NCBI GenBank assembly: GCA_964596065.1
Contig: CAZQSM010000001.1
Coordinates: forward strand, 69,818-133,817
Length of the DNA stretch: 64,000 nt
DNA from: an uncultured Chlorobiaceae bacterium
Lineage (GTDB): Bacteria; Bacteroidota; Ignavibacteria; UBA10030; SZUA-254
Direction of reading: 5' to 3'
In this document: positions 4,267 through 57,012 of the stretch, piece by piece
Layout: every line of letters begins with the position of its first letter
Numbering within the stretch: the first letter of the stretch is position 1
Translations under genes and position numbers: made by a program
Notes under the pieces: generated by a model
Seen by the model: only the letters and a program-made list of their open reading frames with translations
Told to the model about the DNA's origin: nothing
Databases searched by the model: none

Positions 4267-6414
4267 GTGGAACTCAGTATCACTCTCGGCTGCAGCGTTT
4301 TCGCTCTCCTCTTCGCGCTCTATCTCTCACGATGGGTCCTCCGCCAGGATGACGGCACTCCGGCGATGCGGACGATCTCCGATGCCATCCGGGAGGGCGC
4401 CGAGGCGTTCCTTTCCAGGCAATACCGGACCATCCTGCTCCTCACCGTGCCGGTGGCCGCGGTCATCTACATCCTCTACGCGTTCATCAGGCCGGCGTCG
4501 CCCCACGACGCCGTTCCGGTGTCCGACCTCGCCCTCTACACGGCGGGGTCGTTCATCTTCGGCGCGATCTGCTCGGGCGTCGCTGGGTACGTCGGGATGT
4601 ACGTCTCCATCCGGGCGAACATCAGGACAGCGTCGGCGGCCCGGACCAGCATCAACCGGGGCCTGCGCATCGCGCTGCGCGGAGGCGCTGTCTCGGGGCT
4701 GTTCGTCGTGGCGATGAGCCTCCTCGGCGTGGGGGGACTCTACCTCCTCCTCTCCAGGCTCGGGGTGACCGACCACGACATCCCGCTCCTGATCGTCGGC
4801 TACGGATTCGGCGCCAGCTTCGTCGCGCTCTTCGCCCAGCTCGGCGGGGGCATCTTCACCAAGGCGGCCGACGTCGGGGCCGACCTGGTGGGAAAGGTCG
4901 AAGCGGGTATCCCGGAAGACGATCCGCGCAACCCCGCGGTCATCGCCGACCTGGTGGGCGACAACGTCGGAGACTGCGCCGGGCGCGGTGCCGATCTCTT
5001 CGAGTCGACCGCCGCCGAAAACATCGGGGCGATGATCCTCGGCGCGACGCTCGCGGCGAACGCCCAATCCCAGATGGGGATCACCTTCGCCGGGGGGGTG
5101 GTAGGGGTAATGCTCTTCCCGCTCGTCGCGCGGGCGTTCGGGCTCCTCGCGTCGATCATCGGCGTGATGGTCGTGAAGACGACCGAGGACGGCGACCCGA
5201 TGGAGGCGCTGAACAAGGGTTTCTACCTGACGACCGTCCTCGCGGCGATCGGGTTCGGCGTCGGCTGTTACTGGCTCCTCGACACCCCCCAGGCCCCGCA
5301 GGCCTGGTGGCATTTCTGGCTCTGCGGCCTCGTCGGGCTTGCGACAGCGATGGCATTCGTGTACATTACCCAGTATTACACCGAATACAAGTATCGTCCG
5401 GTGAAAGAGATCGCAGTCGCGTCACAAACGGGGCCGGCCACGAACATCATCGCGGGGTTCGCCGTTGCGCTTGAGTGTACGGCGCTTCCGGTGATGGTCA
5501 TCTCCGCCGCCATCCTCAGTTCCTACCACATCGGGCTTTCGAGCGGCCTGCCGAACGCCGGGCTCTTCGGCACCGCCGTCGCGACGATGGGAATGCTCGG
5601 GACGGCGGCGTACATCCTCGCCATGGACACCTTCGGCCCGATCGCAGACAACGCGGGGGGCATCATCGAGATGAGCCAGCAGCCCGAGGAGATCAGGAAG
5701 AAGACCGACCGGCTCGACGCCGTCGGAAACACCACGAAGGCGCTGACGAAGGGATACGCGATCGGCAGCGCGGCCCTGGCGGCGTTCCTCCTCTTTTCAG
5801 CGTATCTTGACGAGGTCGAACACTACAATCCCGGATTCGACCGCGTCATCAACATCGCCGAGCCGGAAATCTTCGTCGGTGGACTGCTCGGGGCCATGCT
5901 CATCTTCCTCTTCGCGGCGCTCGCCATCAGGGCCGTCGGGAAGGCCGCGTACTACGTCATCAACGAGGTCCGCCGCCAGTTCAGGGAAAACCCCGGCATC
6001 CTCCAGGGCACCGTCAAACCCGACTACCGGCAGGCCGTGGATATCGTGACGGCCGGAGCCCTCAAGGAAATGGTCCTTCCGGGAATCCTCGTCATCGCGA
6101 CCCCGATCGCGGTGGGCGTCATTTTCAAAATGTTCGGACTCGGCGCCCAGGCAGTGGCAGCCATGCTGATGGTCGGCACGATGGCCGGTATCCTGGTGGC
6201 CACGCTGCTCAATAACGGGGGCGGGGCATGGGACAACGCCAAGAAGTTCATCGAGACGGGCGAGTACGGCGGCAAGGGATCGGACACGCACAAGGCCGCC
6301 GTCGTCGGCGACACGGTGGGTGACCCGTTCAAGGACACGGCGGGGCCCTCCCTCCACGTCGTCATCAAGCTGCTCAGCACGATCACGCTCGTGCTCGCGC
6401 CGTTTTTTCTTTAG
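4267..6414 (+). CDS. hppA: Membrane-bound proton-translocating pyrophosphatase, K+-independent type
   Basis: 715 aa, GTG start. Motifs GDNVGDCAGRGADLFES, DAVGNTTKALTKGYAIGSAAL (Lys in GNTTKA marks K+ independence), GDTVGDPFKDTAGPS. Confidence 0.95.
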   Translation: MELSITLGCSVFALLFALYLSRWVLRQDDGTPAMRTISDAIREGAEAFLSRQYRTILLLTVPVAAVIYILYAFIRPASPHDAVPVSDLALYTAGSFIFGAICSGVAGYVGMYVSIRANIRTASAARTSINRGLRIALRGGAVSGLFVVAMSLLGVGGLYLLLSRLGVTDHDIPLLIVGYGFGASFVALFAQLGGGIFTKAADVGADLVGKVEAGIPEDDPRNPAVIADLVGDNVGDCAGRGADLFESTAAENIGAMILGATLAANAQSQMGITFAGGVVGVMLFPLVARAFGLLASIIGVMVVKTTEDGDPMEALNKGFYLTTVLAAIGFGVGCYWLLDTPQAPQAWWHFWLCGLVGLATAMAFVYITQYYTEYKYRPVKEIAVASQTGPATNIIAGFAVALECTALPVMVISAAILSSYHIGLSSGLPNAGLFGTAVATMGMLGTAAYILAMDTFGPIADNAGGIIEMSQQPEEIRKKTDRLDAVGNTTKALTKGYAIGSAALAAFLLFSAYLDEVEHYNPGFDRVINIAEPEIFVGGLLGAMLIFLFAALAIRAVGKAAYYVINEVRRQFRENPGILQGTVKPDYRQAVDIVTAGALKEMVLPGILVIATPIAVGVIFKMFGLGAQAVAAMLMVGTMAGILVATLLNNGGGAWDNAKKFIETGEYGGKGSDTHKAAVVGDTVGDPFKDTAGPSLHVVIKLLSTITLVLAPFFL

Positions 6415-25926: not shown

Positions 25927-27837
25927 ATGGACTCACTCCGCCATCTGAAGCTTCTCCACGAGGCGTTGTCACACCCCCAGGATCAGGTCCGGACCCGGAG
26001 GTACGCGATACCGGGGCGATGGTTTCCCACCGGCCACCGGGCCTCCCCGGCATCCCGTGATCCGTTCGCACTGTACGCGTCGGTAACCGGCGCGGTCCTC
26101 AATGCCGATCCCGTTCCGCTCTGCGGCTCCGGCCAAACGGGGGGAGGGTGGTGCAGGGAAGCGGTCGTGTACAATATGCTGGTCAGGCTCACCTGTGCCT
26201 ACGACCACGACGGCGACGGCGTCCTCGGCCTGCCAGTCAACGGCGACGGTTGGAGGGAGACCGGTTCCTTCCTGAAGGCGATCGCCATCCTTCCCTACAT
26301 CCGGTCCCTCGGCGCGAACACGATCCATCTCCTCCCGGTGCAGCAGATCGGAATGGACGGCAGGAGGGGGACGCTGGGATCTCCGTACGCCGTGCGGGAT
26401 CCCCTCGCGATCGACCCGTCGCTCGGGGAACCGAACACCGGCGTCCCGGCCATGACAGAGTTCGCCGCCTTCCTGGAAGCCGCACGGCATTCGGGCTTTC
26501 GCGTTATCGTCGAAATACCGTTAAGAACTCTCAGTAAAGACGCTGCCTGGGTTGAAGATAACCCGGAATGGTTCTATTGGATTCGATCCGACCGAAAATT
26601 CGCCCCGCCCAGGTTTGACCGTGAGGAGATAGCGGCTGCGACGCGGAAGATCGAGGCCGGGGACCGCGAGGGGTTGCCCCCCCCGTCAGCGGAATACCGG
26701 GGGATCTTCACGGCTCCGCCGCAGAGGGGTGCGGTGCGCCTGGATGGGGTCCGGTGGAGCGGCACTTTGCCGGACGGTCAAGGGGTCGTCGTCCCGGGCG
26801 CCTTCGCCGACTGGCCGCCCGACGACCACCAGCCGGTCTGGGACGACGTCACCTACCTGAAATTGTATCAGGACCCCCGGTTCAACTACCCGGCCTATAA
26901 CACTGTGAGGATGTATGATTCAAGCCTTCTCCATGGAGATTCAGCAACAGCAACATTGTGGGAAAAACTGGGATCCGTCGTAGCGGCGTACGCGGGGATG
27001 ACGGGGGTCGACGGGATCATGATCGACATGGCCCACGCGCTCCCGGAACCACTCGTACGCAGGCTCGTCGCCGGGGCGAGGGATATCAATCCCGGATTTT
27101 CCTTCTGGGCGGAGGATTTTTCGAGGACTCCCGGCCAGGTCAGTGTCGGATTCGACGCGGTCCTGGGGGGACAGTGGGCCTGCCAGCACAATCCGGTCGA
27201 TTTTGCCTCGATGCTCGATTGGATCTCCGGGACACCCCAACTGCTCCCGCACCTCGCGACACCGGAGACGCACAACACCCCCAGGGCCGCCGGCAGGAAG
27301 TGGGGCGCACGCTACTCCCGATATGCCTGGACGATCAGTTGTTTCATCCCCGGCATCCCTTTCATCCATTCAGGTTTTGAGTTATACGAAATCCGGCCGG
27401 TCAATACAGGACTTGGCTTTACCCCCCGGGAGCTCGCCTCGTTTCCAACTGAAGAACTTCCTCTTTTCAGTCCTCACGCTCTCTCCTGGAGTCAGGCAGA
27501 TGCGACGGTCGAGTGGGTGGCCCGTCCGCTCGGTATCAGGGCCCGATTCAACGATTGCATCCTCCCGGTCGTTGGGGCGGAATGCCGCATCGTCGACCCG
27601 GGCGACCGGCGCGTCCTCGCGTTCATCCGGTCGAACCGAAACTCGGGCCATTCCCTCCTGATTGTGGGCAACAGCGACCTGGAGCATCGTGTCGATTTCA
27701 CCCTCCGGGGGGTCACTCCCCGGGGCGGGTCGTGGACCGACCTGCTCTCGGGAGAATCGATCGGGGGTTTCCCCGGCGGCGTCAACGGGGGCCTCGATCC
27801 CGGCCAGGTCTTCGTCTTCGAACTGACGGGGTCCTGA
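25927..27837 (+). CDS. GH13 alpha-amylase-family enzyme
   Basis: GSFLKAIAILPYIRSLGANTIHLLPV, GSPYAVRDPLAIDPSLG, and catalytic region GVDGIMIDMAHALP. Start at Met MDSLRHL, 9 nt after glgP; the ORF-track 5' extension overlaps glgP. Confidence 0.7.
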   Translation: MDSLRHLKLLHEALSHPQDQVRTRRYAIPGRWFPTGHRASPASRDPFALYASVTGAVLNADPVPLCGSGQTGGGWCREAVVYNMLVRLTCAYDHDGDGVLGLPVNGDGWRETGSFLKAIAILPYIRSLGANTIHLLPVQQIGMDGRRGTLGSPYAVRDPLAIDPSLGEPNTGVPAMTEFAAFLEAARHSGFRVIVEIPLRTLSKDAAWVEDNPEWFYWIRSDRKFAPPRFDREEIAAATRKIEAGDREGLPPPSAEYRGIFTAPPQRGAVRLDGVRWSGTLPDGQGVVVPGAFADWPPDDHQPVWDDVTYLKLYQDPRFNYPAYNTVRMYDSSLLHGDSATATLWEKLGSVVAAYAGMTGVDGIMIDMAHALPEPLVRRLVAGARDINPGFSFWAEDFSRTPGQVSVGFDAVLGGQWACQHNPVDFASMLDWISGTPQLLPHLATPETHNTPRAAGRKWGARYSRYAWTISCFIPGIPFIHSGFELYEIRPVNTGLGFTPRELASFPTEELPLFSPHALSWSQADATVEWVARPLGIRARFNDCILPVVGAECRIVDPGDRRVLAFIRSNRNSGHSLLIVGNSDLEHRVDFTLRGVTPRGGSWTDLLSGESIGGFPGGVNGGLDPGQVFVFELTGS

Positions 27838-27848
27838 CAGGAGGGCGC

Positions 27849-28592
27849 ATGTGCGGACGGTTCACCATCACGACGGACAGGGTCGAATTCATCCTGAAGA
27901 AGTTCCACGCCATCCCTGCCACCGGTTTCAACGGGATCACGCCGCGGTACAACGCCTCCCCGGGGCAGCTTGTCCCCGCCATCGTCGCGAAGGAGGACGG
28001 GGTCCGATACCTCACCGACGTCCTCTGGGGCTTCGTCCCCCCCTGGGGGGAGGAGAAGGGGGAGGCGGGATACCAGATCAACATCCGCGACGATACGATC
28101 GCGCGCAACAAGTTCTTCCGGTCGCGCCTCCTCTCGGGCCGCTGCGTCCTCCTGGCGGACGGATTCTACGAGTGGCGGAAGCCGCCCGGCTTCGAGCACC
28201 TCCCACGCGGGAAGAGGCTCCCGAAGGGGGTACGGAAAGTTCCGCACAGGATCGTCCTCTCGGACCGCAAACCATTCGCCCTCGCCGGACTCTGGCGCAC
28301 TGTCGACATCAATGCAAAGCACGTCCTGACCGCGGGGATCATTACCACGTCCCCCAACGCCCTGGTCGCGCCGATCCATGACCGGATGCCGGTGATCCTC
28401 GACGACCGCGATCTTTCGCTCTGGCTCGACCCCCGCTCCGACGACTTCGACGCGCTCCACAGCCTGCTCGACCCATATCCCGCCGGGGAGATGGAGGCCT
28501 ATGCGGTTTCCGACGCGGTGAACAACAGCCGGAACGACGTCATCGCCTGTATCGCCCCGGCGGATGATCCGCCGGCTCCGCGGAAGCGTTGA
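27849..28592 (+). CDS. yedK: SOS-response-associated peptidase (SRAP / YedK / HMCES family), abasic-site sensor
   Basis: Begins MCGRFTI (catalytic Cys2 after Met1), about 247 aa, conserved SRAP core. True start 12 nt after the GH13 stop. The 3' end overlaps the convergent PolB gene by about 53 nt. Confidence 0.85.
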   Translation: MCGRFTITTDRVEFILKKFHAIPATGFNGITPRYNASPGQLVPAIVAKEDGVRYLTDVLWGFVPPWGEEKGEAGYQINIRDDTIARNKFFRSRLLSGRCVLLADGFYEWRKPPGFEHLPRGKRLPKGVRKVPHRIVLSDRKPFALAGLWRTVDINAKHVLTAGIITTSPNALVAPIHDRMPVILDDRDLSLWLDPRSDDFDALHSLLDPYPAGEMEAYAVSDAVNNSRNDVIACIAPADDPPAPRKR

Positions 28593-30912
28593 CCGCCGCG
28601 TCAGGCCACGCCACCACCGACTCCGGGGCGGCGACCCTCTCCGGCCGGCCGCCGCGACCGACCGTCGAACGCCTCCCGCCGGACCGGCGCCCATTCACCC
28701 CGTAGATCTCCGCGAGCTTCGCCCGGTCGTATCCGAACGGCGAAAGGAGGGTCTCCACCGCTTTCAATAAAAACTCGGTGTATTTTTCGATGTCGTACCC
28801 GTCCCAGTGCTGGTACGTGAGCAGGCTCTTGGCCTTCTGGGGATCGCGCCTGCCGCTCTGGTCCACGATGATGTAATCGATGACTTCGCCCGCCTTTACC
28901 GTCACGCCGAACGCCGCGAGTTCCCGCACCACCATCGCGCTCAGGTTGTTGGTGACATATTCGTCCGCCTCCTTCTGGACCCGACGGCGGAGCACGAGCT
29001 GTTTCGGGTCGGCGCGGCCTGCGCGCAGTTCGTTCAGGTAGAAACCAGCCTCGCGGATCAGTTCGGGGGCCCTGGCGGCGATCTCCCGGACGTCCTTCAT
29101 CTCCGACATCAGTTCCAGCAGCCGCGCCTGCATCGTCTTGACGAACCAGGGGGTGTCCTTGCGGCGCACCTCGATTCCCCTGGTCTTCATCTCGCCGTGG
29201 GCGTACCACCCCGCGTACTTTCCGGACGTGGGGATGCCGGGGTCGGTCTTCGATGAAGGGAAGAGGAGCCAGGTGTACATCCCCTCGAACGAGACGGTGA
29301 CGCCGACTTCGTCCCTGATCTCCTGGCAGAGCCTGAGGTACTCCTCCCGGGTCGCCCCCGGCTTTTTGAGCCAGAGGCAGTCGATGATGGCGTGCACCAG
29401 GTGAAAGCCGCCGGCCTCGGCGATTTCCTTCGCCCGCAGGAGCGCCTCGCGCGAATACGCGTTCACCGACTCGTGCGCCTCGATCCTCCCGAAGCGCGCG
29501 TTCTTGTACCCGAGGTAGCCGAAGCAGGTCACGAGCATCCACTTGAGCGCGTTCTGCCTCCGGTCATACTTCCGGTACTCGGCGAGGGTGGGGGCGTTCT
29601 TCCTGCGCATCTTGTAATACGCCCGCTTCTCGAGGACCGGTTTGAGCGTCGCCGGAACGATCCCTTTCCGCCGCTCGCAGATCGTGTATCCCAGCTCCGG
29701 CACCTTCCGGTTGTCGCAGCAGGGGCAGTTGATCGTCTCCGGGCTGATGTTGTGCAGTTCCATCAGGCTCGGGTACATGCTGGCGAAATCCAGCTCGGCG
29801 ACCTCCTCGTGGTATCCCATCTCGGGCATGAAGACCAGACCGCCCCGGTCGCTCAGCAACAGCTCGTCGGCGCTCTTGAAATCCTCGCCCTCCTTCTTTT
29901 CGGCGGGGATCAGGATGTTGTTCCGGTACGCGTAGCTCATCTGCATGCTGGCGAGCCCCGTGCCGATGGCCGCCCGGGACTGCTTCTGCATCGGGAGCTG
30001 GGTGAGGCGCGCCAGTTCGATCACCCCCTCGATGTCCGATTCCCCCATGATGAAGCTGTTCTCCGAGTCCATATGCCAGCGGCCGGCCAGCATGAAGGCG
30101 GCGTCGCGGTGGATGATCTGGCCGTAGGTCCAGTAGCTGCGCTCCTTCGTGGTGAAGTACTCCCGCGACCGGTCCCGGTTCAGCAGGAGCGGCACGCGGT
30201 GGCGCAGCGAAGCGTTCTGGATGGTGGGGAGGAGGGTGGCGTCGCCCCACGCCGTCAGGATGATGTCGGGGTCGTACTCGTGCAGGTGCCAGTTGAACGA
30301 CTCCAGGATCGACACGGCGTCTTCCCCCTCGAGCGCGTGGGTCGCGCCGTCGTAGTGCAGTTCGAGGTTCAGCGTCCGGAAGAACTTCGACGGGACGTCT
30401 GCCCCGCCGTTGGTGATCCGCAGGATCCTGAGGTCGGGGAGGGCGTAGTCCCGGGCGTCGAAGCTGTCGCGAACCCCGATGCGCTTCAGCGTCCCCGCGC
30501 CGTCGACGGTGAATTCGCAGCGCGCCAGGGGGAAGACCTGCCGGTCGTAGAGGTACATCTGCGCCACGGGGATGTTGCTGTTGTAGAACGCGAAATGGGG
30601 GAAGAACTTCTGCAGCGCCGAGACGCAGCGGTTGAACTGCAGGGGGTCCCGGACCGTGACCTCCTCCACCTGCCACGCCTGGCCGCTGAAGAGCTCCGTC
30701 TTCACCGCCGTCCCGAGCGTGACCGGCAGGCCGCGCACGAGCGCCGGGAGCCGGAGCGCGTCGCGCCGGTCGAGGCGGAGGTAGAACGAGGGGGCGAAGG
30801 GGTCGACATAACTGCGCGCGGCGCCGTTATCGTCGAGGAGCCAGACGGTCATCCCGCCTGCGACCGGATAGGCGTCGAAGAACCAGCCGTCAATCGTGGC
30901 CACCGGCGTCAC
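28540..30912 (-). CDS. Archaeal-type family-B DNA polymerase homolog with degenerate exonuclease and polymerase motifs (predicted catalytically inactive or impaired)
   Basis: 790 aa. Motif A LDFASMYPSLM intact. KxY region TRGIEVRRKDTPWFVKTMQARLLE strongly conserved. Exo I reads LRILRITNG (Asp/Glu replaced by Arg/Thr). Exo II reads DPDIILTAWGDATLLP (Asp to Leu). Motif B reads KWMLVTCFGYLGY (the NSxYG residues are altered). Motif C reads HAIIDCL instead of YxDTDS. Confidence 0.8.
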   Translation of the reverse strand: MTPVATIDGWFFDAYPVAGGMTVWLLDDNGAARSYVDPFAPSFYLRLDRRDALRLPALVRGLPVTLGTAVKTELFSGQAWQVEEVTVRDPLQFNRCVSALQKFFPHFAFYNSNIPVAQMYLYDRQVFPLARCEFTVDGAGTLKRIGVRDSFDARDYALPDLRILRITNGGADVPSKFFRTLNLELHYDGATHALEGEDAVSILESFNWHLHEYDPDIILTAWGDATLLPTIQNASLRHRVPLLLNRDRSREYFTTKERSYWTYGQIIHRDAAFMLAGRWHMDSENSFIMGESDIEGVIELARLTQLPMQKQSRAAIGTGLASMQMSYAYRNNILIPAEKKEGEDFKSADELLLSDRGGLVFMPEMGYHEEVAELDFASMYPSLMELHNISPETINCPCCDNRKVPELGYTICERRKGIVPATLKPVLEKRAYYKMRRKNAPTLAEYRKYDRRQNALKWMLVTCFGYLGYKNARFGRIEAHESVNAYSREALLRAKEIAEAGGFHLVHAIIDCLWLKKPGATREEYLRLCQEIRDEVGVTVSFEGMYTWLLFPSSKTDPGIPTSGKYAGWYAHGEMKTRGIEVRRKDTPWFVKTMQARLLELMSEMKDVREIAARAPELIREAGFYLNELRAGRADPKQLVLRRRVQKEADEYVTNNLSAMVVRELAAFGVTVKAGEVIDYIIVDQSGRRDPQKAKSLLTYQHWDGYDIEKYTEFLLKAVETLLSPFGYDRAKLAEIYGVNGRRSGGRRSTVGRGGRPERVAAPESVVAWPDAAVNASAEPADHPPGRYRR

Positions 30913-31174
30913 CGGGCGCTTCGACCGTCCGCACGTACTGCGCGGTCTCGAGGTATTTGATCTTCTTGTACTGCTCGAGCAGCATGCTCATGAAGATCGA
31001 TTCGAGCGGGAGTTCGCTCGCGATGAAGGCCCCGGCGGCCAGGTGGAGTTTCGGCGCGCGCCACATCTCGTCAAAGAGCTCCTGGTCTTCCTTCCGGAGG
31101 GCCCGCCGGAACTTGCTCCAGGCCTCCCTGTTCCGGTCGATGAGCAGCGTGAAGGTGTCGTTGTTGCGTCCCAT
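30890..31174 (-). CDS. Small hypothetical protein (94 aa) between the ImuA-like gene and the PolB homolog
   Basis: Balanced, helical-looking composition (REAWSKFRRALRKEDQELFDEMWR...). Overlaps the PolB start by 23 nt and the ImuA-like ORF 3' end by about 104 nt. An alternative start at Met37 (about 31066) would remove the upstream overlap. Confidence 0.4.
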   Translation of the reverse strand: MGRNNDTFTLLIDRNREAWSKFRRALRKEDQELFDEMWRAPKLHLAAGAFIASELPLESIFMSMLLEQYKKIKYLETAQYVRTVEAPGDAGGHD

Positions 31175-31880
31175 GAGGGGTGCTCCGTTGCTGGTTCGGT
31201 GTCTGGTGCAGGTCCCGGTGCAGGTCCTGGTCGAGGTAAAAGTCCGCGCCGTCGTGCCCCAGCAGCAGCGCCTCGTCCGCGCCGCGCCGCACCAGGCCGA
31301 AGAGGTCCGGTTTTCCCGGCGGGGCCGCCCGGCCCACGTCCACGTCGGCGATCAGCACGTGCGCGCCCCCGCGCGCGAGCGCCGCGAAGGTCCGCATCAC
31401 GCGGCCGAGGCTCTCCCGGCACTCGGAAGGCCTGACCTGCTCGTCGTAGTAGGTGTCGAGGAGGCCGGTCACGACGACCAGCGGGCAGGGGACGCGGGCC
31501 AGGAAACGGGGGAGCTTCGACGTGACGGCCTCCTCCGTCTGGAACGCCGTGAACGACCGGGTGACGTGGATCCGGGCCAGGGTTTCCTTCGGGGGGAGCC
31601 CGAGGAACGACGACAGCCGGGAAATGATATAGCTGTTGAAGCGCATCGATCCGTCGATGACGGCGACGGGGCGTTTCGAGGCGCAGGCGAACAGGAGGGC
31701 GGCCGTATAGACCGACGAGTGGCCGTGGAGCAGGTGGACCGCCCCCGGAAACCCCAGGAACCGGCCCGCGGCCGGGCCGAGGCCGGCAAGGGGCGTAAAA
31801 CGGGAGGATTCCGTCTGTCCGAAATATACCGGCGAATGCATCGGGAGGAGTGTGATTTGTTCTCCCGGATGATACGACAT
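31071..31880 (-). CDS. ImuA/SulA-like inactive RecA-fold protein
   Basis: The pattern SRFTPLAGLGPAAGRFLGFPGAVHLLHGHSSVYTAALLFACAS matches the ImuA-style degenerate P-loop region (no GKT/S). PLVVVTGLLDTYYDE is a Walker-B-like strand. The C-terminal about 50 aa are low-complexity. The true start may be Met14 (see promoter feature). Confidence 0.45.
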   Translation of the reverse strand: MSYHPGEQITLLPMHSPVYFGQTESSRFTPLAGLGPAAGRFLGFPGAVHLLHGHSSVYTAALLFACASKRPVAVIDGSMRFNSYIISRLSSFLGLPPKETLARIHVTRSFTAFQTEEAVTSKLPRFLARVPCPLVVVTGLLDTYYDEQVRPSECRESLGRVMRTFAALARGGAHVLIADVDVGRAAPPGKPDLFGLVRRGADEALLLGHDGADFYLDQDLHRDLHQTPNQQRSTPHGTQQRHLHAAHRPEQGGLEQVPAGPPEGRPGAL

Positions 31881-31897
31881 ATTTGTCGCATTGTCAA
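31869..31897 (-). promoter_or_regulatory. Sigma70-like promoter TTGACA-17-TATCAT overlapping the annotated ImuA-like start
   Basis: In gene orientation: TTGACA (revcomp of 31892-31897), a 17-nt spacer, then TATCAT (revcomp of 31869-31874). The -10 lies inside the first annotated codons, which suggests a leaderless start or a downstream start at Met14. Confidence 0.4.
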
Positions 31898-31928
31898 TAG
31901 ACGTACGATAAATTTGTCGTCGACAAAA
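31881..31928. promoter_or_regulatory. Candidate operator: ATTTGTCG repeats, including a 7-1-7 palindrome TTTGTCG-T-CGACAAA (31913..31927)
   Basis: ATTTGTCG occurs at 31881-31888 (in the promoter spacer, abutting the start codon) and at 31912-31919, 31 bp apart. The second copy forms a perfect inverted repeat with CGACAAA at 31921-31927. The surrounding region is AT-rich. Confidence 0.5.
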
Positions 31929-32067
31929 TGAGCGTAATTCGGGAAAAACGTGCCGTCGTGGGCGAAATGGAGCGGGAAGGGACGGTTCGGTGTGATGCGC
32001 GTCAACCGACGTAACGAAGCGAGCAGTTATTTTAATTTATTGAAAAAAAGATACACGACACCTTTGT

Positions 32068-32448
32068 ATGGGTACCCAGCAGTTACTCCTCATCATCGTC
32101 GGGATCATCATCACGGCCATCGGCATCGCCGTGGGTATCCAGCTGTTCGGCGCCTCGAGCACGTCGTCCAACAGGGACGCGCTGATCAACGACATCAACA
32201 ACCTCGCCGCCAACGCGAAGCAATACAGGACCAAGCTGCGGTCGATGGGCGGCGGGGGGGGGAGTTACGTCGGATATACCGTGCCGCCGAAGCTGGTGAG
32301 CAATGACGACGGGACGTTCAGCGCCGTGGTACAGGCGGCGAGCGTCGTGATCACCGGGACCTCCGCGCTCGGGTTCGGGACCGTGTCGGCCACCATCGAC
32401 ACCGCGGGAGCCGCGGGGAACTGGACCTACACGGGTCAGTTCCAGTAG
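32068..32448 (+). CDS. Small secreted/membrane-anchored protein with pilin-like hydrophobic N-terminus and Gly/Ser/Thr-rich body
   Basis: N-terminus MGTQQLLLIIVGIIITAIGIAVGIQLFGASSTSS lacks the canonical G-F-T-L-I-E prepilin motif. Preceded by an AT-rich promoter-like stretch (ttattttaatttattgaaaaaaagatacac). 126 aa. Confidence 0.4.
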   Translation: MGTQQLLLIIVGIIITAIGIAVGIQLFGASSTSSNRDALINDINNLAANAKQYRTKLRSMGGGGGSYVGYTVPPKLVSNDDGTFSAVVQAASVVITGTSALGFGTVSATIDTAGAAGNWTYTGQFQ

Positions 32449-32518
32449 CAGGTCCGCCGCGTCACCGGACCGGCCGCCGTTCCCTTGCCATCGACGGCCC
32501 GGTTTCGTACCTTGTGCG

Positions 32519-33379
32519 ATGCCCGGGGATGACATTCAGACGCACCTGCTTCACGCCCGCCTCCTCCGTCCGTTCTCCGGGCCGATCCTGCTGCTGCTCC
32601 TCCTCCTCCTCCTGGTCCCGCAACCGTTCCGTCTCGGCGCGCAGGTCCTCCAGACCGACATCATCTCCGCCTACCGCGATTCTGATTCCTCGGCCTTCAA
32701 CGCGCTGCTCCAGTTCAACCTGTCGCTGGAACAGCAGCTGAACACCGTCGTCAACCTCGGCGCCGGCGCCGACCTCCGGTGGCACGCAGGGGACGACGCG
32801 ATCATCCTCGGTTCGAAGGCGAAGCGGACGTACGCCGGCGACCTGCGCGTGACGAATTCCGGCTACGCCCATCTCCGGTACCGGCGCGACCGCGCCGCCC
32901 GGACGGGCGCGGACCTCTTCACGCAGTACCAGTGGGACGGGCCCCGCGGTATGAGGAGCCGCACCCTCCTCGGCGCGAACCTGCGGCACGGCGTTCTGAG
33001 GGATTCGACGCGATCGCTCGACGTCGCGGCGGGTGTGATGTACGAACTGGAGCGTTGGGGGTATGACGGGGTCGCGGAGCGCGACCGGCCGGCCGACCAG
33101 TCGGCGGTGAGCGTCCGCCAGCCCAGGATCAACACGTATGTCAGGTACCAGTCGGGGCTGACGGCGGGCGTCAGCCTCCTCGTGATGAACTACGTCCAAA
33201 CCCGGGTCGACGGCAGGTTCGACGAGCCGCGGATCGCGTCGTCGGCCCGGCTGATCGTCGACGTCACGGAGTCGGTCTCGCTCACCATCGCGTACAATTC
33301 GATCTACGATTTCGCCCCGGTGGTCCCCATCCGGCGCTTCTATTTCGACATCGCCAACGGCGTCGCGGTGCGGCTCTAG
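32519..33379 (+). CDS. Putative outer-membrane beta-barrel protein
   Basis: Leu-rich signal peptide (ILLLLLLLLLVPQPFRLGAQ). Alternating amphipathic beta-strand pattern, aromatic C-terminal region. Confidence 0.45.
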   Translation: MPGDDIQTHLLHARLLRPFSGPILLLLLLLLLVPQPFRLGAQVLQTDIISAYRDSDSSAFNALLQFNLSLEQQLNTVVNLGAGADLRWHAGDDAIILGSKAKRTYAGDLRVTNSGYAHLRYRRDRAARTGADLFTQYQWDGPRGMRSRTLLGANLRHGVLRDSTRSLDVAAGVMYELERWGYDGVAERDRPADQSAVSVRQPRINTYVRYQSGLTAGVSLLVMNYVQTRVDGRFDEPRIASSARLIVDVTESVSLTIAYNSIYDFAPVVPIRRFYFDIANGVAVRL

Positions 33380-56163: not shown

Positions 56164-57012
56164 ATGAATACCTTTAAAACCGTCGTCCTGATGAGCTCGA
56201 TGATGGTGCTCCTCCTCATCGTCGGCGCGTCGCTCGGGGGCGAACAGGGAATGATCATCGCGTTCGTCATCTCTCTCGCGATGAATTTTGGATCGTACTG
56301 GTTCTCGGACAAAATTGTCCTCCGCCTCTACCGGGCGACGCCCGCGACGGAATCATCCCATCCCGGCTATTACGCGGCGGTGGCGCGCCTCGCGTCACAG
56401 GCTGGCCTCCCGATGCCGGCGGTGTACGTCCTCCCCTCCGAGGCGATGAACGCATTCGCCACCGGCAGGGACCCTGAGCACGCGGCCGTGGCGGTCACCG
56501 AGGGCCTCCTCCGGACCCTCCAGCCGGACGAACTCGAGGGGGTGATCGCGCACGAACTCGCGCACGTCGAGAACCGCGACATCCTGACCGGCACCATCGC
56601 GGCCACGCTCGTCGGGACCATCACCTTCATCGCACGGATGGCGGGCTGGGCGGCGATCTTCGGCGGCGGGCGCGACAGGCGCGACTCGAACGGGTTCGCC
56701 GATCTCGCGATGCTGATCATCGCCCCCCTCGCCGCGGTGCTCATCCAGATGGCCATCTCCCGATCGAGGGAGTTCGCCGCCGACGCGGGCGCGGCCCGGA
56801 TCACCGGGAGGCCGCTCTCGCTGGCGAACGCCCTCAGGAAACTCGCCCAGGCCTCCGAACGGCGGGTCGCCTTGCCGGCGAATCCGTCGACGGCCCATTT
56901 GTTCATCGTCAACCCGCTCCGGGGAGGAGGAATCATGAAGCTTTTCTCGACCCATCCCCCGATGGAAGAACGGATCGAACGGCTCGACCTCATCGCCCGC
57001 GGCGGGGCCTGA
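56164..57012 (+). CDS. htpX: Protease HtpX (M48)
   Basis: [10 protein letters not shown] zinc motif. Four TM helices. 282 aa. Confidence 0.85.

Follow-up and report, generated by a model that had tools for sequence, protein, structure and literature searches.

Does a family-B DNA polymerase (PolB) with degenerate catalytic motifs still polymerise DNA, or does it merely bind it? This question is raised by a gene at positions 28540-30912 of a 64,000-nucleotide stretch from an uncultured Chlorobiaceae bacterium (contig CAZQSM010000001.1; the whole stretch is referred to below as the window). An initial sequence-only reading, aligned by eye against archaeal PolB, had proposed that catalysis was lost and that a scaffold or processivity role was left. 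Our analyses point to a different answer: with a probability of about 0.82, the gene product is the catalytic subunit of a bacterial PolB2 (G2) mutasome, which is encoded by an iRadA-PPB2-PolB2 operon of an Ignavibacteria/Bacteroidota-like genome and serves as a damage-induced translesion extender.

28540-30912, minus strand: polB2, B-family DNA polymerase of the bacterial G2/PolB2 group and predicted catalytic subunit of a mutasome (PF00136, NCBIfam, tblastn, AlphaFold2/Foldseek).

The interval corresponds to exactly one open reading frame (ORF) of 790 aa with a GTG start, and it resembles the genuine genes of this window (64% GC) in its G + C content at third codon positions (GC3, 0.91), with a typical coding asymmetry. 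The protein matches Pfam PF00136 (E 5e-37) as well as the KOD, 9N, Tgo and Pfu polymerases (E about 1e-48 with phmmer). An AlphaFold2 monomer model derived from 45 homologues reached a mean predicted local distance difference test score (pLDDT) of 82.9 and a predicted template-modelling score (pTM) of 0.80, and its top Foldseek matches were Thermococcus PolB structures (template-modelling score about 0.66, E 6e-41), a similarity well above what chance would give. The ORF encodes a real family-B DNA polymerase.

Concerning its place within the family, the best NCBIfam models were NF004416 and NF004418 (388 bits, 1e-115), whereas the canonical archaeal PolB and Pol II models gave at most 168 bits (2.6e-49 for canonical archaeal PolB). 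Of the two, NF004418 represents haloarchaeal PolB2 and scores 1468 bits on the PolB2 gene of Halobacterium pNRC200; the window protein stays under the curated cut-offs of both models, as expected for a bacterial branch. A tblastn search against plasmids returned 134 records, those listed being haloarchaeal, annotated as 'type B DNA-directed DNA polymerase' and 30-36% identical (E about 1e-94). By model scores and tblastn, the window protein is thus closer in sequence to archaeal PolB2 than to PolB1, PolB3 or Pol II. Homologues exceed 5000 at E <= 1e-10, and a scan of the GTDB species-representative genomes gave at least 592 relatives; the sources of the best 80 are mostly metagenome-assembled genomes (MAGs) of Ignavibacteria and Bacteroidota, with a minority from Kryptoniota, Nitrospirae, Chloroflexi, Thermodesulfobacteriota, Deltaproteobacteria and Terriglobia. 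On sequence comparison, the window PolB2 belongs to the bacterial branch (G2) of archaeal PolB2, and a previous report found G2 to nest within archaeal B2 (PMC7544198). The kinship to archaeal PolB paralogues once called 'inactivated', which the sequence-only reading had noticed, is thereby borne out.

The motifs were then located in four alignments: a HMMER alignment to KOD; a family profile against PDB sequences; a MAFFT set of KOD, E. coli Pol II, RB69 gp43 and two haloarchaeal PolB2, in which KOD residues 241-298 were entered as X and that stretch is unreliable; and column statistics from 120 homologues sharing 53-90% identity with the window protein. Alignment with polymerases of the Pfu, RB69 and E. 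coli Pol II type, which had been suggested as a check on the lesions read by eye, confirmed nearly all of them. In the polymerase domain the features are as follows.

29767-29796, minus strand: motif A, ELDFASMYPS, residues 373-382, with metal-ligand D375 and steric-gate Y380 (alignment to KOD, homologue columns).
29506-29562, minus strand: motif B, RRQNALKWMLVTCFGYLGY, residues 451-469, with K457 kept and the NSYY positions occupied by VTCF (alignments, homologue columns).
29368-29400, minus strand: motif C, LVHAIIDCLWL, residues 505-515, with the PolB2 signature HxxxD (alignments, homologue columns, PMC8764526, PMC11791011).
29143-29226, minus strand: equivalent of the KxY motif (G564-K565-Y566) and conserved region V (KTRGIEVRRKDTPWF), residues 563-590 (alignments, homologue columns).

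Motif A had been read by eye as retaining its Asp and Tyr, and LDFASMYPS indeed pairs with KOD LDFRSLYPS in both HMMER and MAFFT, with D375 and Y380 kept. The description of motif B was equally accurate: the Lys is preserved as K457, and KOD N491, S492, Y493 and Y494 are replaced by V461, T462, C463 and F464. For motif C, VHAIIDC pairs with KOD IYSDTDG, so that the first Asp has become Ile while the second, D511 (KOD D542), is kept; the claim that HAIIDCL is degenerate was therefore right about the first Asp but passed over the second. The corresponding motif in haloarchaeal PolB2 is H-G-I-V-D in the MAFFT alignment. The label of KxY primer grip had been misplaced: the segment TRGIEVRRKD so named is conserved region V (KOD TRGLEIVRRD), and it is G564-K565-Y566 that pairs with KOD KKY.

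Conservation bears directly on the question of activity. D375, K457, H507 and D511 are present in 120/120 homologues and Y380 in 119/120, while an alignment of 45 sequences shows no variation at R430 and K434, the counterparts of R460 and K464 in the KOD fingers. The share of invariant columns is 36% in palm and fingers and 47% in the loop at residues 331-360, compared with 17% in the exonuclease remnant, 15% in the thumb and 7% in the N-terminal domain; palm and fingers are the most constrained domain of PolB2. The protein has both metal-ligand carboxylates of motifs A and C, the loss of which marks truly inactivated PolB modules. Previous reports described the replacement of YxDTD by HxxxD in PolB2 (PMC8764526, PMC11791011), and the discussion in one of them noted that in solved B-family structures the metal is coordinated only by the second Asp of DTD (PMC8764526). 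Motif C of Sulfolobus Dpo2 is 401-IID-403, the same letters as in the window PolB2, and this enzyme equals the replicase Dpo1 in nucleotide incorporation, has no exonuclease and excels in extending mismatched or lesion-paired termini (PMC8764526); damage-induced mutagenesis requires Dpo2 (PMC7390963). Given the invariance of D375 and D511 (and of R430, K434 and K457), the constraint on palm and fingers and the activity of the archaeal HxxxD relatives, the proposed loss of catalysis in favour of a scaffold or processivity role is unsupported.

The exonuclease domain presents a different picture.

30406-30492, minus strand: remnant of the Exo I strand, residues 141-169, without DxE in any register (three registers, columns, regular-expression scan).
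30220-30273, minus strand: remnant of Exo II, DPDIILTAWGDATLLPTI, residues 214-231, with KOD D215 replaced by L227 (profile and MAFFT alignments, columns).

For Exo I, the candidate columns differ among the sequence-only reading (R165/T167), MAFFT (T167/G169) and the profile-to-KOD alignment (G146/R148), and the exact register is not fixed; nevertheless, every candidate column is variable and non-acidic in the 120 homologues, and the loss of both carboxylates, as originally claimed, holds in each of them. In Exo II, PDIILTAWGDATLLP pairs with PDVLITYNGDNFDFA, with KOD N210 replaced by W222 and the catalytic D215 by L227, in agreement with the reported loss of the catalytic Asp. The alignments disagree on Exo III: phmmer and MAFFT set KOD D315 on the invariant D282, without a Tyr four residues upstream, whereas the spacing, when measured against the GRxxxD strand of Pol II, is suggestive of a deletion of about 50 or more residues. 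Exo III was stated to be missing in the PolB2/G2 group (Kazlauskas et al., PMC7544198). As intact DxE, NxxxFD or DTD residues elsewhere in the sequence would have indicated a shifted alignment, PolB2 was scanned with regular expressions; NxxxFD was absent from the whole sequence, DxE from the part preceding Exo II, and DxD from the polymerase domain. Judged from these residues, the exonuclease of PolB2 is dead. The remnant does keep the invariant or nearly invariant acids D149, D224, D282, E291, D293 and E295 (window about 30026-30468), which might contact the Arg-rich arm of the partner protein PPB2 described below.

A further invariant element lies just before motif A.

29839-29898, minus strand: flexible loop, residues 339-358, with F345-K-x-A348 and D355-R356, predicted docking site of iRadA and the PPB2 arm (invariant columns, low pLDDT, PMC11791011, PMC7544198).

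D355-R356 corresponds to the D(K/R) motif of PolB2 and occurs in 120/120 homologues; its distance to the Ile pair of motif C is 154 residues here versus 148 in S. islandicus (PMC11791011). F345-K-x-A348, just upstream of it, is likewise invariant, and pLDDT is low at residues 340-360 of the monomer model. PolB2 was previously predicted to bind iRadA through a mimic of the FxxA-type oligomerisation motif (PMC11791011). The resemblance of F345-K-x-A348 to the FxxA oligomerisation motif of Rad51/RadA suggests that it may be this mimic.

The two predicted partners are encoded immediately upstream.

30890-31174, minus strand: PPB2 ('partner of PolB2', Pfam DUF8156), 94 aa (homology to an ORF of related locus L001 with PF26485; profile match).
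31071-31841, minus strand: iRadA, RadA/Rad51-like protein without P-loop (family profile, homologue scan).

The ORFs of iRadA and PPB2 had no Pfam or NCBIfam match even at E <= 10 in a Pfam set without DUF8156, and they were identified through homologous loci and profile searches. Window PPB2 begins MGRNNDTFT and is about 85-90% identical (by eye) to the ORF of L001 that carries PF26485 (DUF8156). All 64 homologues share an N-terminal (M/V)GR(T/N), in the form MGRT in 58, MGRN in five and VGRT in one; PPB2 has been described as small and helical, with MGRT as a conserved arm at its N-terminus (PMC11791011). The iRadA copy is 78% identical to that of L001, and a profile of 27 homologues compared with the PDB found P. 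furiosus RadA at 5.6e-9, with all of the top matches being RadA, Rad51 or DMC1; the Walker A motif GxxxxGK[ST] was absent from 27/27 iRadA homologues. Both results agree with the definition of iRadA as a RadA/Rad51 core that has neither the N-terminal domain nor the ATPase P-loop. Although the iRadA ORF spans 31071-31880, its start is more likely the ATG at 31841 (MHSPVYF...) than the first ATG at 31880, as the latter falls inside the promoter, in the stretch that separates its -35 from its -10 hexamer.

The three genes run in the order iRadA-PPB2-PolB2 on the minus strand, from 31841 to 28540; the last 104 nt of iRadA overlap PPB2 in another frame, and the 3' end of PPB2 overlaps the polB2 start by 23 nt. 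This is the sole gene order reported in bacteria (PMC11791011), and among 61 GTDB loci whose upstream DNA was long enough, 59 have both partner genes before polB2 in this order. The layout recurs on a Halobaculum plasmid, where two 'hypothetical' genes match the bacterial profiles (PPB2 profile against the 101-aa gene, 7.5e-23; iRadA profile against the 250-aa gene, 4e-11). The overlap of iRadA and PPB2 (31071-31174, iRadA in the -1 frame) recurs in about 20 distant loci, where its length is always either 104 or 107 nt; it may be a by-product of the conservation of the PPB2 N-terminus, or may be tied to the iRadA-PPB2 fusions in the literature. On a separate note of annotation, the public gene call at 4866-5729 of L001, a contig 85% identical, is in the wrong frame, with the true iRadA homologue at 5044-5799, and iRadA may often be missed in annotations of the PolB2 operon in GC-rich MAGs.

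The operon is preceded by a promoter-like sequence and a palindrome.

31869-31897, minus strand: promoter-like TTGACA-17 nt-TATCAT (11/12 consensus matches).
31874-31889, no strand assigned: palindrome of 16 bp, GCGACAAATATGTCGT, in the spacer that separates -35 from -10; candidate operator of SOS/LexA type (recurrence in related loci).
31905-31925, no strand assigned: further, imperfect copy of the operator, ACGACAAATTTATCGT, situated 31 bp upstream of the other and overlapping a TGTCG-A-CGACA palindrome.

TTGACA-17-TATCAT is the only sigma-70-like site in 27400-32200. The palindrome was compared between window 31869-31925 (minus strand) and related loci L008-L081. In the form (A/G)CGACA-N4-TGTCGT it precedes iRadA in about 30/57 loci, usually paired 31-32 bp apart, and some of these loci carry an iRadA merely about 30% identical to that of the window. 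It also precedes lexA-like genes kilobases away from the operon in L014, L020 and L028. Where absent before iRadA, it tends to sit farther upstream, before a Y-family polymerase gene in L037, L054, L061 and L064. The loci, 786 kb in all, contain 38 exact sites, 25 of which stand before iRadA or a lexA-like gene. Within the window, GACA-N4-TGTC occurs three times versus 0.9 expected; the site at 56308 lies inside an htpX-like coding region and has different flanks, and was taken as chance.

Taken together, this distribution suggests that the palindrome is probably the SOS operator of the lineage and that LexA is probably the repressor of the operon. Expression of the window operon is predicted to be inducible by DNA damage, on the basis of the promoter and of a palindrome shared with lexA-like and Y-family genes. 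The Gram-positive CGAAC-N4-GTTCG box has a 5-N4-5 layout, and the candidate ACGACA-N4-TGTCGT box is laid out in the same way. The candidate box differs from the published motifs of Bacteroidetes (GGA-N5-TCC, CTAA-N5-TTAG) and of Balneolaeota (PMC8565304, PMC7739468). We put at about even the chance that the paired 16-bp ACGACA-N4-TGTCGT element is an undescribed SOS (LexA) box of an Ignavibacteria-like lineage, controlling the PolB2 mutasome here and, in sister genomes, an 'inserter plus extender' super-operon (Y-family polymerase, DUF72-like, iRadA, PPB2, PolB2).

Such arrangements were observed in L037 (2026-4839), L054 (1718-4485), L061 (1483-4624) and L064 (1140-4712), where genes for a Y-family polymerase and a DUF72-like protein stand ahead of iRadA-PPB2-PolB2; the upstream Y-family genes of L054 and L064 contain IMS domains (E 1e-43 to 1e-46). 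A Y-family 'inserter' upstream under the same palindrome fits an extender role of PolB2. The window operon is without these upstream genes, and a search by the DxDxFFASV motif found no Y-family polymerase in the window. On the other side of the operon, polB2 meets a gene of a different family.

27849-28592, plus strand: SRAP (abasic-site-shielding peptidase family), beginning MCGRF (PF02586, 3.5e-56).

The PF02586 match starts at residue 113 of a long ORF. The SRAP gene converges on polB2, the 3' ends overlapping by 53 nt, and the same convergent arrangement was found in L001, L007, L008, L010 and L012; in total, 9/61 related loci have a SRAP gene, in two different arrangements. A lexA-like gene is present within 5 kb in 20/61 related loci, and SRAP and lexA were previously reported as enriched neighbours of polB2 (PMC11791011). 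The genes examined next to the operon showed no integrase or other sign of a mobile element.

The overlap with the SRAP gene involves the last 53 nt of polB2, within residues 742-790 (28540-28685), a segment that is predicted to be disordered (pLDDT <50) and is poorly conserved. Many homologues end in QIPLF, ELPLF or QLSLF, while the window tail reads ...PESVVAWPDAAV...RYRR. Close relatives share the ...RYRR ending and have ELFP where more distant homologues carry a beta-clamp motif of QIPLF/ELPLF type.

These observations are compatible with the following scheme. A dimeric repressor, probably LexA, would bind the paired ACGACA-N4-TGTCGT elements and repress the operon at its sigma-70-type promoter, and DNA damage would induce it. 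PolB2 would polymerise by means of the metal ligands D375 in motif A and D511 in motif C, with H507 in place of the missing first Asp, and, being without 3'-5' proofreading, would serve in translesion synthesis, chiefly by extending primer ends that are mismatched or paired with a lesion. The complex of PolB2, iRadA and PPB2 would probably have a 1:1:3 composition, in which iRadA would dock on the F345-K-x-A348 loop and one PPB2 arm (MGRN...) would insert near D355-R356 and the DNA. Group membership, the retained catalytic residues, the lost exonuclease residues, the operon, the promoter and the conservation of the palindrome come from the present analysis. Polymerase activity, the lack of exonuclease, extender behaviour and damage induction are carried over from experiments on archaeal Dpo2, and the architecture of the complex from published AlphaFold models.

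An alternative hypothesis is that this PolB, in departure from the archaeal enzyme, is catalytically dead and, in the manner of the C-terminal module of Pol epsilon, binds primer-template DNA to act as scaffold or processivity factor. In favour of this hypothesis, DTD is without its first Asp, motif B has changed where Asn, Ser and Tyr are expected, the exonuclease is inactive, the family was formerly annotated as inactivated (Rogozin 2008, cited in PMC7544198) and the literature searched holds no assay of a bacterial member; however, both metal-ligand Asp residues and the triphosphate-binding Arg/Lys are invariant, the catalytic domain is the most constrained, and archaeal HxxxD orthologues are robust polymerases (PMC8764526). 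As a scaffold without chemistry would not keep its active site as its best-conserved part, we consider a dead enzyme very unlikely. The parallel with the C-terminal half of Pol epsilon, drawn by the sequence-only reading, fails for a similar reason, since it needs a non-catalytic module and both metal-ligand Asp are invariant here. It is also unlikely that PolB2 is an active polymerase with a main job other than translesion extension, such as SRAP-coupled gap-filling at abasic sites or primer-independent synthesis like that of piPolB. The SRAP gene that abuts the operon here and in about 9/61 related loci could be taken to indicate such a role, as could the absence of the first motif C Asp from piPolB too (PMC7544198), but the best sequence matches are PolB2 and not piPolB, the operon of relatives is fused behind a Y-family 'inserter' under the same palindrome, and no mobile-element sign was seen among the genes examined beside the operon. 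That the ORF is a decaying pseudogene, or arose by chance in a window of 64% GC full of spurious long ORFs, has a negligible probability and is refuted by conservation: the frame is intact, under strong constraint and with a GC3 of 0.91, and has more than 5000 homologues and at least 592 GTDB relatives.

Several points nevertheless weigh against a PolB2 mutasome. Motif B has lost the Asn and Tyr with which KOD contacts the nucleotide, and polymerase activity of the window PolB2 would be extrapolated from enzymes that are about 30% identical, no biochemistry on a bacterial PolB2 having been found in the literature searched. No lexA gene was detected in the 64-kb window by the S24 'G[DNE]SM' motif. 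A clamp-binding motif was not found at the C-terminus of the window PolB2 or iRadA; this motif is present in only a fraction of PolB2 systems and is not strictly defining.

The bacterial G2/PolB2 group and its predicted mutasome have been described computationally in the years from 2014 to 2026 (Makarova 2014, PMC4104785; Kazlauskas 2020, PMC7544198; Timinskas 2025, PMC11791011; PMC12926913). The window system shares with this group the HxxxD motif C, the dead exonuclease, D(K/R), the FxxA-like loop, the iRadA-PPB2-PolB2 order and the SRAP neighbour, and differs from it in a PPB2 arm that reads MGRN rather than MGRT (a minority form, 5/64), in having no detectable clamp motif in PolB2 or iRadA and in the absence of a lexA gene from the 64 kb. 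With Dpo2 of Sulfolobus islandicus and S. solfataricus it shares 'IID' in HxxxD, the absence of exonuclease motifs and the same two partner genes; Dpo2 was likened by its published description, haloarchaeal PolB2 (30-36% identical) being aligned in its place. Dpo2 is, however, shorter, has a more decayed exonuclease domain, is under Orc1/Cdc6-type regulation and not a LexA-like operator, and works with PCNA instead of a beta-clamp; moreover, it has been characterised experimentally, whereas the window PolB2 is known here from sequence.

Among more distant systems, eukaryotic Pol zeta (Rev3-Rev7-Pol31-Pol32) is likewise a multi-subunit B-family enzyme with an inactivated exonuclease that extends past lesions, but it belongs to another clade, has unrelated accessory subunits and keeps the full DTD. 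The E. coli Pol V mutasome (UmuD'2C-RecA) and Pol II are comparable as SOS-controlled translesion polymerases. Pol V, although a Y-family enzyme unlike the window PolB2, also binds a RecA-family protein via a motif that resembles an oligomerisation motif, and one of its subunits is small and bears an arm at the N-terminus. Pol II, which is the other extender of family B in bacteria, consists of one subunit and retains DxE, FD and DTD intact; the intact DxE, FD, YxxxD and DTD motifs of its type are not those of the window PolB2 in direct alignment. The C-terminal PolB module of Pol epsilon shares the B-family fold and degenerate motifs, and differs in that both metal-ligand Asp are invariant in the window PolB2.

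Since all of the flagged features are published hallmarks of the B2/G2 group (PMC4104785, PMC7544198, PMC8764526, PMC11791011, PMC12926913), the finding is of a known kind, and the functional reading as a dead enzyme is outdated. The main value of the present analysis is one of correction: the by-eye argument that a broken DTD means a dead polymerase repeats an error made with archaeal PolB2 and overturned by biochemistry in 2020-2022. Small new elements are the operator palindrome and, in relatives, the Y-family polymerase gene carried in the same operon. The locus opens no new category; it illustrates a bacterial PolB2 mutasome cleanly and completely, with a strong promoter and a clear operator, and could serve for a first biochemical test of a bacterial PolB2 and for defining the SOS box of a poorly studied lineage.

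Two further observations concern the surroundings of such operons. In L002 (199-2556, Ignavibacteriales), a second unusual B-family polymerase gene was found 2.4 kb upstream of the PolB2 operon; its 785-aa product matches PF03104 (2e-12) and PF00136 (7e-9), shows no DTD in a regular-expression scan and may belong to a bacterial group resembling the N-terminal half of Pol epsilon. In the window itself, the region 32068-33379, divergent from the operon, holds a 126-aa ORF that appears pilin-like by eye (hydrophobic N-terminus, no Pfam match) and a DUF481 ORF (PF04338, 5e-8), neither with an evident link to the polymerase system.

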